Part shown: positions 2,706 to 5,876 of the stretch, in pieces
Position numbering within the stretch: position 1 is the first letter of the stretch
Layout: every line of letters starts with the position of its first letter
IMG/VR virus record: IMGVR_UViG_2695420532_000004
Source of the DNA: a virus
Lineage: Duplodnaviria; Heunggongvirae; Uroviricota; Caudoviricetes
Strand: one strand, 5' to 3'
DNA: 12,713 bases
Translations under genes and position numbers: made by a program
The notes under the pieces: model-generated
The model's input: the letters and a program-made list of their open reading frames with translations, nothing else
Databases searched by the model: none
What the model was told of the DNA's origin: nothing

Positions 2706-2933
2706 ATGTTAACCAGAAGGGAAAAAGACATGCTAAAACAGCAAGATATGACAGAAACCGCCGCCGCAGTCCTTCATTTCTTACCTGCTGACAAGTGGGT
2801 AACGCCACGCATGATGACGAGAACTACCGGAGTAAGCGAAGCCCGGTGCCAGTTAATACTGACTCAGTTAGTTCTGGCGGGGCTGGCGAAGGATAACGGC
2901 GGGTACGGGAATAAATTCAGACGCTGCCAGTAA
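2706..2933 (+). CDS. small winged-helix regulator, FaeA/PapI-like
   Basis: 75-codon ORF (alternative starts ATG 2730 with AGGGA upstream, or ATG 2748). The pattern VLHFLPADKWVTPRMMTRTTGVSEARCQLILTQLVLAGLA matches the layout of PapI/FaeA-family wHTH proteins as recalled. It sits directly upstream of a DNA methyltransferase. Confidence 0.5.
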   Translation: MLTRREKDMLKQQDMTETAAAVLHFLPADKWVTPRMMTRTTGVSEARCQLILTQLVLAGLAKDNGGYGNKFRRCQ

Positions 2934-3083
2934 TGGCGGTTTCCTGCTGTGAAAATGGGCGGCTGGTGGGTGTTGGTAGCACCTGCCAGCCATTCGCTCA
3001 TGCTTACTGGTCACAAGCGAACCACGGCCCACTGCTTTAGCGCAAAAGCAGAGTGAGCCTACCAGAGTTACGCTTACTGATCC

Positions 3084-4136
3084 ATGAAAAATACTGTAAA
3101 AATAAACAGTGTTGATTTAATCAACGCTGATTGCCTGCATTTTATTCAGTCCCTGCCTGATGATTCCATTGACCTGATTGTTACCGATCCGCCGTACTTC
3201 AAGGTGAAACCCAACGGTTGGGACAATCAGTGGAAAGGGGACGAAGATTACCTTAAGTGGCTGGACCACTGTCTGGCCCAGTTCTGGCGGGTGTTAAAAC
3301 CTGCCGGAAGCCTTTATCTGTTCTGTGGGCATCGCCTGGCATCTGATATTGAGATCATGATGCGTGAACGTTTCAACGTGCTTAACCATATCATCTGGGC
3401 GAAGCCGTCCGGACGTTGGAATGGGTGTAATAAAGAAAGTCTGCGCGCATATTTTCCTGCCACAGAGCGCGTTCTGTTTGCTGAACATTACCAGGGGCCA
3501 TATCGCGGCAAAAGTGACGGCTATGCAGCAAAAGAAAGGGAACTCAAACAGCACATAATGGCACCGCTGATATCGTATTTCAGGGATGCTCGTGCCGAAC
3601 TGGGTATAACGGCAAAACAAATTGCCGAAGCCACAGGTAAGAAAAATATGGTTTCCCACTGGTTTGGTGCCAGTCAGTGGCAGTTGCCGAATGAGGCTGA
3701 CTATCGGAAGTTACAGGCACTGTTTTCCCGTATAGCGGCAGAGAAGTTTCAGGAACAACAACTGGAACAACCACACCACCAGCTGGTGGCATCTTATGAT
3801 TCACTGAATCGCAAATATTCTGAATTGCTGGATGAGTTTAAATCTCTCCGGCGCTATTTCTCCGTATCAGTCTCCGTGCCTTATACCGATGTCTGGACGC
3901 ATAAACCCGTTCAGTTCTACCCGGGTAAACATCCGTGCGAGAAACCGGCGGATATGCTCCGGCAAATAATCAATGCCAGTAGTCGCCCTGGTGATCTGGT
4001 TGCTGATTTCTTTATGGGATCCGGTTCCACAATAAAAGCAGCAATGGCGCTGGGGCGTCGGGCGTTAGGTGTTGAACTTGAGTCAGAGCGGTTTAATCAG
4101 ACGGTGAAAGAGGTAAGTGAACTGGTGGGGAAATAA
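3084..4136 (+). CDS. DNA methyltransferase, beta-class amino-MTase (probably N6-adenine), orphan
   Basis: Motif IV DLIVTDPPYF lies near the N-terminus and motif I (AdoMet-binding FFMGSGST...ALGRRALGVE) near the C-terminus; this IV-before-I order defines the beta class. A roughly 100-aa insert between them is a candidate target-recognition region. No restriction endonuclease gene is adjacent. Confidence 0.9.
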   Translation: MKNTVKINSVDLINADCLHFIQSLPDDSIDLIVTDPPYFKVKPNGWDNQWKGDEDYLKWLDHCLAQFWRVLKPAGSLYLFCGHRLASDIEIMMRERFNVLNHIIWAKPSGRWNGCNKESLRAYFPATERVLFAEHYQGPYRGKSDGYAAKERELKQHIMAPLISYFRDARAELGITAKQIAEATGKKNMVSHWFGASQWQLPNEADYRKLQALFSRIAAEKFQEQQLEQPHHQLVASYDSLNRKYSELLDEFKSLRRYFSVSVSVPYTDVWTHKPVQFYPGKHPCEKPADMLRQIINASSRPGDLVADFFMGSGSTIKAAMALGRRALGVELESERFNQTVKEVSELVGK

Positions 4137-4143
4137 TTCTGGT

Positions 4144-4169
4144 GGCCACGTTGCGTGGCCTTTTTATTT
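4144..4169 (+). terminator. rho-independent terminator between the MTase and the holin
   Basis: GGCCACG (4144-4150), loop TTG, CGTGGCC (4154-4160), followed by TTTTTATTT (4161-4169). Confidence 0.55.
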
Positions 4170-4212
4170 CCAACACAGCACCCGCAAATATCGCGAGGTG
4201 AGAGATGACGAA

Positions 4213-4548
4213 ATGCCTCATAACCCAAATACCTGGCCGGACTGGCTGGAGTTGTTTCAGAGCTGGTGGCGTGGAGACACGCCGCTGGGTGCAGTGATTA
4301 TGTCGATCGTTATGGCTGGTTTGCGCATCGCCTATTTTGGCGGTGGTGGTGGCTGGAAGCGAAAAACGCTCGAGATTTTGCTCTGTGGCGCTCTGACGCT
4401 GACCTTTGCATCCGCTCTTGAGTATGTCGGATGGCCTAAATCACTTTCTGTTGCCATTGGTGGCGGCGTGGGGCTGATCGGTGTCGATGCTATTCGTGGG
4501 GCTGCAATGCGAGTAATCGGTAACAAGTTTGGTGGCTCTAAGGAGTAA
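4213..4548 (+). CDS. holin (lambda S-like family)
   Basis: About 111 aa with hydrophobic transmembrane segments and a glycine-rich, basic C-terminal tail, placed immediately upstream of the endolysin. Start chosen at ATG 4213, downstream of the terminator hairpin, rather than the ORF-track start at 4117 which overlaps the MTase end. Confidence 0.8.
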   Translation: MPHNPNTWPDWLELFQSWWRGDTPLGAVIMSIVMAGLRIAYFGGGGGWKRKTLEILLCGALTLTFASALEYVGWPKSLSVAIGGGVGLIGVDAIRGAAMRVIGNKFGGSKE

Positions 4549-4551
4549 TTT

Positions 4552-5028
4552 ATGCAGGTACTAAATTCCCAGCGTAAAGCTTTCCTCGATATGTTGGCGT
4601 GGTCAGAAGGAACGGATAACGGGCGACAGCCAACCCGCAATCACGGCTACGACGTTATTGTAGGTGGTGAGTTATTCACGGATTACTCCGATCATCCTCG
4701 CAAACTTGTCACGCTAAACCCCAAACTCAAATCAACAGCCGCCGGACGTTACCAGCTTCTTTCACGCTGGTGGGATGCTTACCGTAAACAGCTTGGCCTG
4801 AAAGATTTTTCTCCAGAAAGCCAGGACGCTGTAGCTCTGCAGCAGATTAAAGAGCGTGGCGCTTTACCGATGATTGATCGCGGTGATATTCGTCAGGCTA
4901 TCGACCGTTGCAGCAATATCTGGGCTTCACTACCGGGCGCTGGTTATGGTCAGTTCGAGCATAAAGTTGACAGCCTGATTGCAAAATTCAAAGAAGCAGG
5001 CGGAACGGTCAGAGAGATTGAGGTATGA
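4552..5028 (+). CDS. R: endolysin, lambda R-type lytic transglycosylase
   Basis: The 158-aa translation ([26 protein letters not shown]...) is nearly co-linear with lambda R as recalled, including the catalytic-Glu context WSEGTD. RBS AAGGAG lies 6 nt upstream. Confidence 0.95.
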
Positions 5029-5492
5029 GCAGAGTAACCGCGATTATCTCCGCTCTGGTTATTTGTATCATCGCCTGCCTGTCATGGGCTGTTAATCATT
5101 ACCGTGATAACGCCATCGCCTACAAAGAACAGCGTGATAAAAAAGTCAGTGAGCTGAAGCAGGCGACCGCCACCATCGCTGACATGCAGCAGCGTCAGCG
5201 TGATGTTGCTGCGATCGATGCAAAATACACGAAGGAGTTAGCCGATGCGAAAACTGAAAATGAAACTCTGCGCGCTGATGTTGCCGCTGGTCGTAAGCGC
5301 CTGCGGGTCAATGCCAGTTGCTCCGCAGCCGTGCGTGAAGCCACCGGACCCACCAGCATGGATAATGCAACCAGCCCCCGACTGGCAGACACCGCTGAAC
5401 GGGATTATTTCACCCTCAGAGAACGGTTGATGACGATGCAGAAGCAACTGGAAGGGGCGCAGGAATATATCCGCACCCAGCGCATTAAGTAG
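5025..5492 (+). CDS. Rz: i-spanin Rz
   Basis: 155 aa with an N-terminal transmembrane segment and coiled-coil-like body, very similar to lambda Rz as recalled; its start overlaps the R stop (ATGA). Confidence 0.9.
5245..5430 (+). CDS. Rz1: o-spanin Rz1, lipoprotein embedded in Rz in the +1 frame
   Basis: 61-aa ORF wholly inside Rz with RBS GAAGGAG; lipobox LVVSAC and a proline-rich mature region ([24 protein letters not shown]) closely resembling lambda Rz1. Confidence 0.85.
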
Positions 5493-5876
5493 ATGGAGAA
5501 AAAACACGAATCTGTGGTTTTTACTGAGCGCGGTGTACACGGTGGAACATATGGCGGGAAGTTTGTTGCTTATGATTATGCAGCATGGCTAAACCCCGGA
5601 TTTAAATATGCAGCCTATAAAGTCCTGGATGACTACTTCACCGGAGAACTTCAGCATCGCAACAGCTTAAGTGCGCAGCTCAATATGAAGTGTCATGAGT
5701 TTGATCAGAAAAAAGATATGGCGAGCTTCTGTGGACAAGGGCTGGCGGCATGGCGCTATACGAAGCCAGTGTTGGTCGCTGAGATTAACTCCCTGGCTAA
5801 CCAGCTGCAGATAACGATCCCCGGGCTGTCCGGTATTTGCCGGTATGAAATTACCGGAAGGCGCGGTCGTTACTGA
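5493..5876 (+). CDS. KilA-N-like domain protein, apparently only the C-terminal half of the domain
   Basis: 127-aa ORF with GGTYGGKFVAYDYAAWLNPGFKYAAYKVLDDYF, resembling the conserved core of KilA-N/APSES domains. There is no clear RBS, and it starts on the codon immediately after the Rz amber stop, in the same frame. Confidence 0.45.
   Translation: MEKKHESVVFTERGVHGGTYGGKFVAYDYAAWLNPGFKYAAYKVLDDYFTGELQHRNSLSAQLNMKCHEFDQKKDMASFCGQGLAAWRYTKPVLVAEINSLANQLQITIPGLSGICRYEITGRRGRY

Follow-up and report, generated by a model that had tools for sequence, protein, structure and literature searches.

Enzymes of the M.EcoGII family are in commercial use, and the enzyme is widely applied in chromatin footprinting. 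M.EcoGII is a non-specific, prophage-borne methyltransferase (MTase) that is silent in the lysogen and deleterious if expressed, and it has been proposed to act in anti-restriction (PMC5778455; PMC12707154). Reconstructed ancestors across the M.EcoGII family are likewise non-specific (PMC11551740). The published work on M.EcoGII and M.EcoGI, which stem from a prophage of E. coli O104:H4 C227-11, describes neither an upstream small ORF nor a leader RNA, and the word 'upstream' occurs zero times in it (PMC5778455). In phage Mu, the small zinc-finger protein Com activates translation of a toxic gene for DNA modification: it remodels the mRNA hairpin in which the start of that gene is hidden (PMC6483171, PMC3299994). 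The Mu-like prophage systems Hin1523, Nma1821 and Hia5 share with the proposed reading of the locus described here non-specific adenine methylation, anti-restriction and an upstream small regulator, and Com-type genes ahead of non-specific adenine MTases, which replace Mom, are documented (PMC3299994). Under laboratory conditions a non-specific MTase gene of a Mu-like prophage stays silent; a structured leader like the present one is not described for these systems (PMC3299994). They also differ from the present locus in MTase class (alpha versus beta), in the type of phage and in the small protein.

The window analysed here, i.e. the whole stretch of 12,713 nucleotides, contains two ORFs on the + strand that the sequence-only reading had correctly delimited as 2706-2933 (75 aa) and 3084-4136 (350 aa). 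The second encodes a beta-class N6-adenine DNA MTase of the M.EcoGII family. It matches the Pfam family N6_N4_Mtase (PF01555, E 1.3e-42) over residues 29-341, and its DPPY motif (residues 35-38, nt 3186-3197) precedes the FxGxG motif, present as FMGSG (residues 310-314, nt 4011-4025), which bears out the earlier assignment to the beta class. The comparison with M.EcoGII gave 283 identical residues out of 349 (81%) with 2 gaps, end to end and including the central helical target-recognition domain; this value is approximate, since the reference sequence was machine-read with a few errors from the PDF of Table S1 of PMC11551740. The guess that the enzyme might be of the M.EcoGII type was therefore correct. 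Like M.EcoGII and M.EcoGI (PMC5778455), it combines beta-class motif order and a length of 349-350 aa with location in a lambdoid prophage. The window MTase is 19% divergent from M.EcoGII, and sequence-non-specific N6-adenine methylation is what its family membership suggests. The exact protein sequence falls in a 90% cluster of 4060 members, and the homologue search with the protein returned relatives of at least 76% identity only, among the matches listed. A locus search with a diverse MTase alignment likewise gave near-identical loci only; distant relatives were reached via a spread tblastn search of a phage collection. The MTase itself is ordinary, a further copy of an already known and characterised enzyme family.

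Since PADLOC (MTase_II PDLC03265, E 1.6e-152) and Pfam group the enzyme with Type II MTases, one could assume that it is the survivor of a decayed restriction-modification system whose nuclease was lost, the more so as the window contains a DUF968 gene (376-1371) whose HNH-like product has a weak HNHc_6 match (2.7e-06) and could be that nuclease. However, this gene lies before the Q gene in the early-right operon and does not stand beside the MTase gene in N15, PY54 or VHML, and an MTase without sequence specificity has no site-specific nuclease as its cognate partner. A nuclease gene next to a homologous MTase gene was looked for in related phages and prophages and found in 0 of 11 annotated contexts (SfV, Ayreon, 1720a-02, Stx2a_1447, N15, PY54, ST2-1pr, PhAER-2, VHML, phiO18P and E189); in all of them the MTase gene is flanked by terminators or the small ORF on the 5' side and by lysis genes, tRNAs or stx on the 3' side. 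The earlier statement that no restriction enzyme is nearby holds for the window as well, and a decayed system is hardly credible. The PADLOC scan for defence systems matched only generic Type II/orphan MTase models and left the small ORF without a match.

The surroundings of the two genes are those of a lambdoid late region, the window running through DUF968, Q, a 205/214-aa ORF, holin, lysozyme, Rz/Rz1, terminase, portal and capsid genes. The late antiterminator Q gene (1374-1760, +) matches Phage_antitermQ (PF06530, E 5.2e-48) and is labelled 'antiterminator Q family protein' in the RefSeq annotation of the E. coli E189 prophage, which is 99.7% identical. The 205/214-aa ORF sits between Q and a tR'-like intrinsic terminator, which was read from the sequence at 2583-2610 (+; stem 2585-2590 with 2597-2602, T-run 2602-2607) and stands 5' of the small ORF. 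Rho-independent terminators are annotated at homologous positions in SfV (L001, 4001-4036) and Ayreon (L002, 3992-4030). A terminator scan placed a second intrinsic terminator in the gap between the MTase and holin genes (4144-4170, +; GGCCACG-TTG-CGTGGCC followed by TTTTTATTT), and both of these phage records have a terminator annotated at the equivalent site. Directly 3' of the MTase gene follows the lysis cassette (4213-5492, +), known from the ORF list and the E189 RefSeq annotation, with the holin (4213-4548; PF05106, E 2.6e-27), the lysozyme (4552-5028) and Rz (5025-5492) with the embedded Rz1 (5245-5430), all on the + strand. The MTase gene also stands directly before lysis genes in N15, PY54, Vibrio ST2-1pr, Aeromonas PhAER-2 and VHML. 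We read the MTase cassette as the opening cassette of a lambdoid prophage's Q-dependent late operon; the MTase gene is the first gene past the late terminator. The late promoter pR' was searched for in the window and not located with confidence; an ARAGORN search found no tRNAs. With Rfam 15 and the whole window, the only match at E ≤ 1 was STnc130 (2575-2711, -) with 30.1 bits against a gathering score of 55; this weak match overlaps the terminator region and lies outside the leader described below.

Of 5426 complete E. coli genomes, 1711 carry the segment formed by small ORF, spacer and MTase gene; among 33 loci from different species, 29 have the small ORF about 150 nt 5' of the MTase gene. 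The pairing of the two genes is far beyond chance. This linkage and a dN/dS of 0.30 argue that the small ORF is a real gene, so the earlier proposal of a 75-aa protein was right in that respect. Its start, however, is the second ATG, which gives a gene of 67 aa (2730-2933, +) instead of 75 aa from ATG 2706: homologues in other genera all start with MLKQQDMT, RefSeq annotates 67 aa, and pairing with the anti-SD sequence reaches -5.3 kcal/mol at ATG 2730 versus -2.8 at ATG 2706. An AF2 model (pLDDT 84.6) presents the protein as a generic, stand-alone winged helix with three helices, and its recognition helix is invariant (R-C-Q-L-I-L-T-Q-L).

This protein had been taken for a regulator of the PapI/FaeA type, which together with adenine methylation would form a portable, heritable and phase-variable epigenetic switch. 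Indeed, PapI (2HTJ) and the small protein are both stand-alone winged helices of about 70 aa that hhalign places in the same helix register, and a near-invariant GATC lies 2 nt 5' of the MTase AUG. However, the FaeA family PF04703 matched neither the small protein nor any of 21 homologues at E ≤ 1, whereas PapI as positive control matched it at 6.5e-32; a profile of the small-protein family searched against the PDB did not recover PapI at E ≤ 10, and hhalign gave a probability of 18% at 18% identity. There is thus no detectable kinship with PapI. The genes belong to a lytic late operon and not to a fimbrial-type switch; no fimbrial operon and no Lrp/GATC switch setting is present, and the methylase partner is of a non-specific, lytic-phase family. 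Moreover, the small ORF is missing from 18 of 130 distinct MTase upstream regions and also from N15, PY54 and VHML, so that it is dispensable for the module. An epigenetic switch is therefore implausible, and we regard this reading as very improbable. Three roles had been offered for the pair; published work on M.EcoGII supports that of a self-protecting anti-restriction module (PMC5778455). The annotation of the small ORF is to be corrected accordingly to 67 aa and a generic winged helix that is not PapI-like. The source databases name some of its homologues TrmB-family or IscR-family regulators, and its accession was not found in the literature searched.

The most conserved element of the locus is neither of the two genes. 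The sequence-only reading had treated positions 2934-3083 as intergenic DNA; the 150-nt spacer is apparently an RNA of four helices (P0-P3) with a leader of approximately 135 nt. The covariance model R1 matches it at 2949-3086 (+) including the AUG, with 146.9 bits. P0 (2924-2939, +; CUGCCA-GUAA-UGGCGG) holds the UAA stop of the small ORF in its loop and is followed by a U/C-rich tract; its fold of -12.2 kcal/mol (z -1.05) is not significant alone. Most of the 130 upstream regions have a hairpin at this position with unrelated sequences, and the hairpin that corresponds to P0 is a strong terminator wherever a locus lacks the small ORF; in N15 and PY54 its sequence is AACCGCC...GGCGGTTTTTTT. 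P1 is a long hairpin (2955-3001, +) composed of P1a (2955-2960/2996-3001) and P1b (2961-2973/2979-2991) with an internal loop AUUC. P2 is an outer helix (3009-3082, +; 3009-3013/3078-3082 and 3015-3019/3071-3075) that is also present in the single-sequence MFE fold; its 3' arm carries a near-invariant UGAUC (GATC 3079-3082), and it encloses P3 (3026-3059, +). The most conserved unpaired stretches flank P3 (GAACCAaGGCCCA ... GAGCCUAUCA).

The predicted helices are accompanied by a covariation signal. Compensatory changes occur in 30 of the 37 pairs of P0-P3, as compared to 17.9 +/- 2.2 in shuffled alignments, none of 500 shuffles reaching this count; this strongest count used alignment A5, which was fitted to the model's own structure, and a MAFFT-based check was also run. 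Within P1b all 12 of 12 pairs are changed on both sides (38 sequences), and 8 of the 9 modelled pairs of P2 show compensatory changes. In the leader alignment 88.9% of the cells are paired, versus 26-43% with the partners slid. The + strand folds with -61.6 kcal/mol (z -2.75), the - strand with a z of only -1.44, and the G-U pairs assign P1 to the + strand.

A small DNA-binding-fold protein encoded 5' of a modification-related gene calls to mind the controller (C) proteins of Type II restriction-modification systems, where the timing of a potentially harmful enzyme is likewise under control. C proteins, however, have an Xre-type HTH, bind their effect to C-boxes and control a nuclease. It is conceivable that the spacer likewise acts as DNA, namely as operator or promoter for the winged-helix protein in a controller-like circuit, since palindromic DNA is the usual target of winged-helix proteins, P1 forms an inverted repeat of 13 bp at the DNA level and some homologues carry the names of the TrmB or IscR family. 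However, the arms of the RNA helices vary freely in sequence and stay complementary while the recognition helix of the protein is invariant, G-U pairs are confined to the + strand, which is also the better-folding one of the two, and the element is conserved where the small protein is absent. Promoter-like sites are not enriched (4 found versus 5.5 expected), there is no restriction gene, and the small protein lacks the HTH_3 signature of C proteins; in contrast to a C-protein operator, the conserved spacer behaves as RNA. P1 as a DNA operator was rejected on account of the G-U pairs, the strand asymmetry and the free covariation, and we consider the broader reading of the spacer as DNA unlikely.

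Conservation of the spacer could also be a mere by-product, either of recent horizontal spread or of an encoded small protein or uORF, and not reflect a functional RNA. The E. coli sample is largely near-identical, P1 opens with an AUG/GUG, and the spacer is overlapped by - strand ORFs (45 and 54 aa). Nevertheless, the compensatory changes extend across phages of Enterobacterales, Vibrio and Aeromonas, and the leader is more conserved than the adjoining coding DNA, its mean nucleotide identity to 25 other species being 0.82, while the MTase gene reaches 0.72 and the small ORF 0.63. The putative uORF ends after 3 to 45 codons in a frame that differs among species, and any reading frame in the spacer is broken because of 1-nt indels across the alignment. 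A by-product is therefore a very remote explanation. That the spacer codes for a small protein or leader peptide was rejected as well, as the AUG/GUG frame is interrupted at varying positions and the indels shift the frame.

What the RNA might do is suggested by its position relative to the MTase start. The 3' arm of P2 spans -13 to -2, directly before the AUG, and the start lacks an SD sequence: the anti-SD duplex amounts to -2.4 kcal/mol versus -6 to -10 for holin, R and terL, and 130 distinct leaders are equally without SD (median -2.4 kcal/mol). The MTase start is thus predicted to be sequestered in the P2 helix of the mRNA, and we infer an effect of the leader on MTase translation. Masking of the start is not universal, since in VHML an ordinary SD comes after P2. 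The relatives from Vibrio and Aeromonas have an ORF for a Mu Com-type zinc ribbon between leader and MTase gene; these unannotated ORFs of Vibrio ST2-1pr and Aeromonas PhAER-2 match Zn_ribbon_Com (PF10122) with 26.2 and 34.5 bits, respectively (gathering score 22.9), and 3' of them lie hairpins that bury the SD of the MTase gene (-12.6 and -15.6 kcal/mol, z -2.7 and -3.2).

The window locus therefore invites comparison with com-mom of Mu. Shared are a late anti-restriction modification gene, toxic according to the M.EcoGII literature, a small ORF just 5' of it, and a start of the modification gene that is paired in a conserved RNA helix, predicted in the present case. Unlike Com, which is a Cys4 zinc ribbon, the small protein of the window is a winged helix; unlike in Mu, a four-helix RNA of about 135 nt lies between small ORF and MTase gene and is present even without the small ORF; and unlike Mom, the window enzyme is a methyltransferase.

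It is tempting to assume that the small protein is the effector of the leader, i.e. an RNA-binding translational activator that opens P2 as an analogue of Com with another fold. We consider this doubtful. The small protein has no PF10122 match and no zinc ribbon or Com homology, and winged-helix proteins mostly bind double-stranded DNA. In the 18 of 130 regions and in N15, PY54 and VHML, leader and MTase gene persist without the small ORF, and the leader core is the same in loci with and without it; the small protein is thus not an obligatory ligand of the leader.

Taken as a whole, the locus is best read as encoding a late-expressed, non-specific anti-restriction methylase under Q-dependent transcription and leader-gated translation, with the small protein as an accessory regulator. 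We put the probability of this reading at roughly 0.7; it presumes activity and specificity of the enzyme, late expression and translational masking at this locus. Late in the lytic cycle the MTase would methylate replicated phage DNA and thereby let the progeny escape host restriction. Its synthesis would be locked at two levels, since the enzyme is considered toxic and must stay off in the lysogen. The transcriptional lock would consist of the terminators on both sides of the gene, a reading suggested by the anatomy of the locus and by the published silence of M.EcoGII in lysogens: with the tR'-like terminator ahead of the cassette and another one after the MTase gene, read-through would be limited to Q-modified polymerase. 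The MTase gene, which stands in a prophage late operon with no nuclease gene, is probably silent in the lysogen, as the flanking terminators and the literature suggest. The translational lock would be the pairing of P2 within the 13 nt before the SD-less AUG.

Since many unpaired bases of the leader are invariant, a specific partner probably recognises it. We rank as candidates the MTase itself, which would exert negative feedback, before a host factor or metabolite, and these before the small protein. The 67-aa protein is a lineage-restricted accessory of the cassette, encoded just 5' of the leader. That it is an accessory regulator of MTase expression is suggested by its position in the cassette and by the Com-type counterpart in Vibrio and Aeromonas; this regulatory role is the weakest link of the account.

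The leader appears to be new relative to the databases and papers searched. An Rfam search of positions 2900-3110 at E ≤ 10 returned four matches, all of at most 13.4 bits, the RefSeq and GenBank records examined (60 of phages, and those of E. coli in RefSeq) leave the leader unannotated, and its sequence was not found in the literature searched. Nor did the databases and papers searched explain how the toxic MTase is kept in check. In the 60 phage records the leader occurs once per record and adjoins the MTase start. Among 38 further viral leader matches the MTase gene follows downstream in 37, the exception (L353) preceding a 20-codon ORF; this exclusivity holds for the sample only, because the loci were gathered via the small ORF, the RNA or the MTase. 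A covariance model built from Enterobacterales only still recovered the leader 5' of the homologous operon in PY54 (59 bits), VHML (57), N15 (36), Aeromonas (35) and Vibrio (30.5). In 748 kb of unrelated DNA there were 0 matches to the leader. In metagenomes the pattern GTGGGCG...GCCCA...AGCYTAYC yielded 120 stretches, 0 of them confirmed by the covariance model; they are chance matches that serve as a negative control only.

We suggest only tentatively that the leader represents a new class of cis-regulatory RNA for non-specific adenine MTases of temperate phages, either a protein-responsive operator or a riboswitch. As an operator it may be bound by the MTase and/or the winged-helix protein, and in the latter case Mu Com would have its first analogue with a winged-helix fold; as a riboswitch it may sense a metabolite, for instance SAM or SAH. 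If such a class exists, the leader would set the timing of a genome-wide toxic DNA modification with an RNA that is present in about one third of E. coli genomes and also at the 5' end of the stx2 late transcript. If the leader gates translation, this would explain the silence of M.EcoGII-type enzymes in lysogens despite a constitutive late promoter, provide a second, structurally different case of the com-mom logic, and offer a natural control element for an M.EcoGII-type enzyme.

The leader also occurs in SfV and in Stx2a, Stx2c and Stx2d phages, in the Stx2 phages at a site flanked by the late promoter region and stx2. The closest relatives of M.EcoGII (93%), found in Stx2a phages and phage 1720a-02, share the layout of small ORF, 150-nt leader and MTase gene. 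The long stx2 late transcript of Stx2a phages includes the cassette, given its location between pR'/tR' and the tRNA-stx2 genes. This is the same neighbourhood as the pR'-tR' region that gives rise to the sRNA StxS (PMC7547250). StxS is a short terminated transcript 5' of tR', whereas the window leader lies 3' of tR' and the small ORF and has a different sequence; the EHEC sRNAs AsxR and AgvB were likewise rejected as identities of the leader, as the published papers describe other sites. In Stx2c phages the leader is 100% identical to that of the window, while the MTase protein is only 85.7% identical.

The window covers the right-hand part of a lambdoid prophage with its regulatory and late genes, all of them on the + strand. 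A DUF968 gene (376-1371) is followed by the gene for the late antiterminator Q (1374-1760; PF06530, E 5.2e-48), an ORF of 205/214 aa without assigned function (1809/1836-2453), an intrinsic, tR'-like terminator (2583-2610), a small ORF for a winged-helix protein (2706/2730-2933), a spacer of 150 nt (2934-3083), the methyltransferase (MTase) gene (3084-4136) and a second terminator (4144-4170), 3' of which the genes for holin, lysozyme and Rz/Rz1 and then for terminase, portal and a protease-capsid fusion are located. The RefSeq annotation of the E. coli E189 prophage, at 99.7% identity across the query region, matches this layout, with the small ORF as a 67-aa hypothetical protein and the spacer without annotation, and both terminators are annotated at homologous positions in the phages SfV and Ayreon. 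No location could be established in the window for the late promoter pR'.

The MTase is a beta-class amino-methyltransferase (PF01555, E 1.3e-42) with the motifs DPPY (residues 35-38) and FMGSG (residues 310-314), and no restriction gene is present in the window. This agrees with the sequence-only reading, which had placed both ORFs correctly, had described a beta-class MTase without a nearby restriction enzyme and had guessed at the M.EcoGII type. The latter guess is borne out by an end-to-end alignment with 81% identity (283/349) to M.EcoGII, a figure that is approximate because the reference (GenBank EGT69837.1, taken from the SUPREM paper, PMC11551740, Table S1) was machine-read with a few errors. 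By its sequence, the enzyme is a further member of the M.EcoGII family, an already known kind. M.EcoGII is prophage-encoded and methylates adenine in any sequence context (PMC5778455), and non-specific activity is kept in reconstructed ancestors across the family (PMC11551740). It is silent in the lysogen and harmful upon expression (PMC5778455; also PMC12707154), and its authors proposed that it is switched on when the prophage enters lytic growth, in order to defeat restriction (PMC5778455). Its nearest relatives in the phage collection (93%) occur in Stx2a phages and phage 1720a-02, in the identical arrangement of small ORF, 150-nt spacer and MTase, followed by tRNAs and stx2.

The pairing of small ORF and MTase is more than a chance juxtaposition. 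The segment occurs in 44 phage records and, among complete E. coli genomes, in 1711 of 5426. Among 33 loci from different species that were retrieved via the small protein alone, the MTase lies 3' of the small ORF in 29, with a spacer of 134-154 nt (mostly 149-151); the other four are one truncated contig and three fragments. The small ORF is a real gene, intact in 27 of 28 species loci, with a pairwise dN/dS of about 0.30 that stays below 1 in every informative pair. Its invariant helix C-Q-L-I-L-T-Q-L is encoded by two to six synonymous codons per position, which indicates selection at the protein level. The true start is most likely the ATG at 2730, which has the stronger ribosome-binding site and is also the start in RefSeq; all homologues outside E. 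coli begin with MLKQQDMT.

The proposal that this protein is a PapI/FaeA-like regulator, part of an epigenetic switch, did not hold. None of 22 family members matches FaeA in Pfam, and PapI as positive control does so clearly (PF04703, E 6.5e-32). The family profile did not recover PapI (2HTJ) at E ≤ 10 from the PDB, although it was among the searched structures, and hhalign gave a probability of 18%. Since the sequence-only reading had itself named the lack of such a match as decisive counter-evidence, we abandon the assignment; what the protein shares with PapI is no more than a very common type of fold. The best Pfam match of the window protein is MarR_2 (E 0.058), and the 22 members show weak matches to TrmB (20), MarR_2 (15) and DprA_WH (14, best 1.6e-06). 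In PHROGs the protein belongs to phrog_331 without assigned function, and it has no match in PADLOC. It is neither PapI/FaeA nor a C protein nor Com, but a member of a lineage-restricted, uncharacterised winged-helix family.

The spacer itself is predicted to be a conserved structured RNA. Aligned over 29 species loci it is more conserved than the flanking genes. The mean nucleotide identity to the window is 0.82 for the leader, whereas the MTase gene reaches 0.72 and the small ORF 0.63. The predicted fold consists of an upstream hairpin P0 (2924-2939), a long hairpin P1 with an AUUC internal loop (2955-3001), and a helix P2 (3009-3019 with 3071-3082) in which P3 (3026-3059) is nested. The + strand folds with -61.6 kcal/mol (z -2.75; - strand z -1.44), and several conserved G-U pairs also fix the RNA strand. 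In a MAFFT alignment of 22 sequences, which is independent of the covariance model, 84.5% of the cells are paired (28-45% with partners slid) and 13 pairs show compensatory change, a count reached by 0 of 500 shuffles. A model-fitted alignment of 38 distinct sequences including distant phages favours the structure of the model, but the same alignment underlies its slid controls; here 88.9% of the cells are paired (26-43% slid) and 30 of 37 pairs show compensatory change (shuffles 17.9 ± 2.2, 0/500 reach it). From E. coli to Vibrio, about fifty unpaired positions hardly vary (AAUGGGCG, CAUUC, GAACCAAGGCCCA, GAGCCUAUCA and CUGAUCYAUG). Variable stops and frame-shifting indels exclude both a peptide encoded in the leader and a protein from the minus strand. 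In 15 Stx2c phages (e.g. LC727876.1, 16593-16742) the spacer is 100% identical to that of the window, at 85.7% identity of the MTase protein and about 90% of the region DNA, which suggests that either the spacer is very strongly constrained or recombination had a boundary where the MTase begins. We found no earlier description of this leader RNA: no Rfam 15 family matches it, public records carry no annotation at the spacer, and the literature search did not find its sequence in any paper.

The RNA belongs to the MTase and not to the small ORF. Among 130 distinct regions upstream of the MTase, all contain the RNA core, 112 the small ORF, and 18 lack the latter; the core is alike in both groups. 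A covariance model built from Enterobacterales sequences only, and searched against the sequences retrieved for this analysis (its E-values are rough because calibration was shortened), detected the element in five distant phages, each time directly 5' of the homologous operon, namely in Yersinia PY54 (59 bits; MTase 61% identical to that of the window), Vibrio VHML (57 bits; 48%), N15 (36 bits; 56%), Aeromonas PhAER-2 (35 bits; 53%) and Vibrio ST2-1pr (30.5 bits; 56%). In phiO18P, a P2-like phage in which the MTase directly adjoins the preceding holin without a gap, it found no leader. With blastn, the spacer hit one site per record in 60 phage records, always adjoining the MTase start. A pattern scan of viral contigs added 38 model-confirmed elements, all but one 5' of the MTase; the exception precedes an ORF of 20 codons, the first two residues of which (MK) match the MTase. 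Metagenomic DNA matching the same loose pattern (748 kb) gave zero model matches. Since every locus was sampled by way of some part of the module, the exclusivity of RNA and MTase is well supported but not proven. Four architectures occur: terminator, small ORF, leader and MTase (this window, SfV, Stx2 phages); terminator/P0, leader and MTase (N15, PY54, some lambdoid phages); leader, Com-type ORF and MTase (ST2-1pr, PhAER-2); and leader, Shine-Dalgarno (SD) sequence and MTase (VHML).

We infer the specificity of the enzyme, its late expression, the masking of its start and every effector proposed here. An SD sequence at the MTase start is absent from all 130 distinct leaders, and the median anti-SD duplex there is -2.4 kcal/mol, whereas the holin, lysozyme and terminase genes of the window reach -6 to -10. 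Positions -13 to -2 relative to the MTase start are taken up by the P2 3' arm, and the cassette lies behind Q, flanked by terminators. Transcription of the MTase would depend on Q-mediated readthrough and its translation would be held down by the leader, so that leakage through tR' in the lysogen would give no enzyme. The near-invariant unpaired nucleotides are needless for a mere hairpin and therefore point to specific recognition of the fold. As partner we rank autoregulation by the MTase first, because the enzyme is the only constant companion of this leader and because RNA is both bound and methylated by M.EcoGII; second comes a metabolite or host factor, and third the small protein. The stop codon of the small ORF lies in the P0 loop, so its translation must melt P0. 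The invariance of its recognition helix implies that the small protein has a conserved partner, be it a nucleic acid or a protein. It is dispensable and the leader is unchanged in its absence, which argues against a role as main effector. The small protein probably modulates expression or use of the MTase.

The regulatory logic is nearest to that of Mu com-mom, although the fold, the RNA architecture and the operon order of the parts differ. Com-type genes are known 5' of non-specific adenine MTases in Mu-like prophages (PMC3299994). In ST2-1pr (locus L320, ~1366-1480) and PhAER-2 (locus L321, ~1368-1500) we detected Com-family zinc-ribbon ORFs, unannotated in GenBank, between leader RNA and MTase (PF10122, Zn_ribbon_Com, above gathering score). 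A stable hairpin 3' of each buries the SD sequence of the MTase (z -2.7 and -3.2), as in Mu. By analogy, this lends independent support to translational control in the MTase family. The winged-helix ORF is the small ORF of the cassette in the window; in the Vibrio and Aeromonas relatives that small ORF is of the Com type, but it lies 3' of the leader instead of 5'.

Some further observations concern the module. A GATC (Dam site, 3079-3082) lies 2 nt 5' of the MTase AUG and is nearly invariant across enteric leaders (within CUGAUCYAUG). It is part of the P2 3' arm, and the 5' arm often reads GAUCA too; its conservation may serve the RNA pairing alone or, in addition, a signal for DNA methylation, for which the Dam control of Mu mom may be compared. 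In N15 (NC_001901.1), the annotated MTase start of gene 52 (locus position 1735) appears about 78 codons too short, and tblastn homology and the leader RNA place it at 1501. An Enterobacteriaceae locus (MGYG-HGUT-00110, 3962-4284) contains a decayed module, which has kept small ORF and leader RNA (88.5 bits), with unrelated short ORFs in place of the MTase before holin and lysozyme. On the - strand, 2575-2711 resembles the Salmonella sRNA STnc130 below the Rfam threshold (30.1 bits, gathering score 55). This match extends over the tR'-like terminator and the beginning of the small ORF, and possibly stems from homology to the corresponding part of Salmonella lambdoid prophages.

Other observations concern neighbouring genes. 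The ORF between Q and the tR'-like terminator (probable start 1836; phrog_8498, function unassigned) has weak WYL-domain matches (Pfam E 0.0096, PADLOC E 0.0013), and a promoter-like site (1809-1837) overlaps its start. If pR' lies just after Q, this ORF would be constitutively transcribed in the lysogen, in the manner of a moron or defence gene. A 127-aa ORF (5493-5876) between Rz and the small terminase subunit, an unusual site for an antirepressor-like gene, combines an ORF11CD3 domain (E 1.7e-13) with a weak match to KilA-N. At its C-terminus the DUF968 protein weakly matches the nuclease domain HNHc_6 (E 2.7e-06) with a CxxC...HH motif, and its counterpart in phage 1720a-02 is mis-annotated as 'antitermination protein Q'. 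The E. coli E189 prophage encodes a Dam-like 'phage N-6-adenine-methyltransferase' in the nin region (5053-5706 of its locus), beyond the left end of the window. This one phage therefore has two adenine methylases, which presumably differ in timing and specificity.
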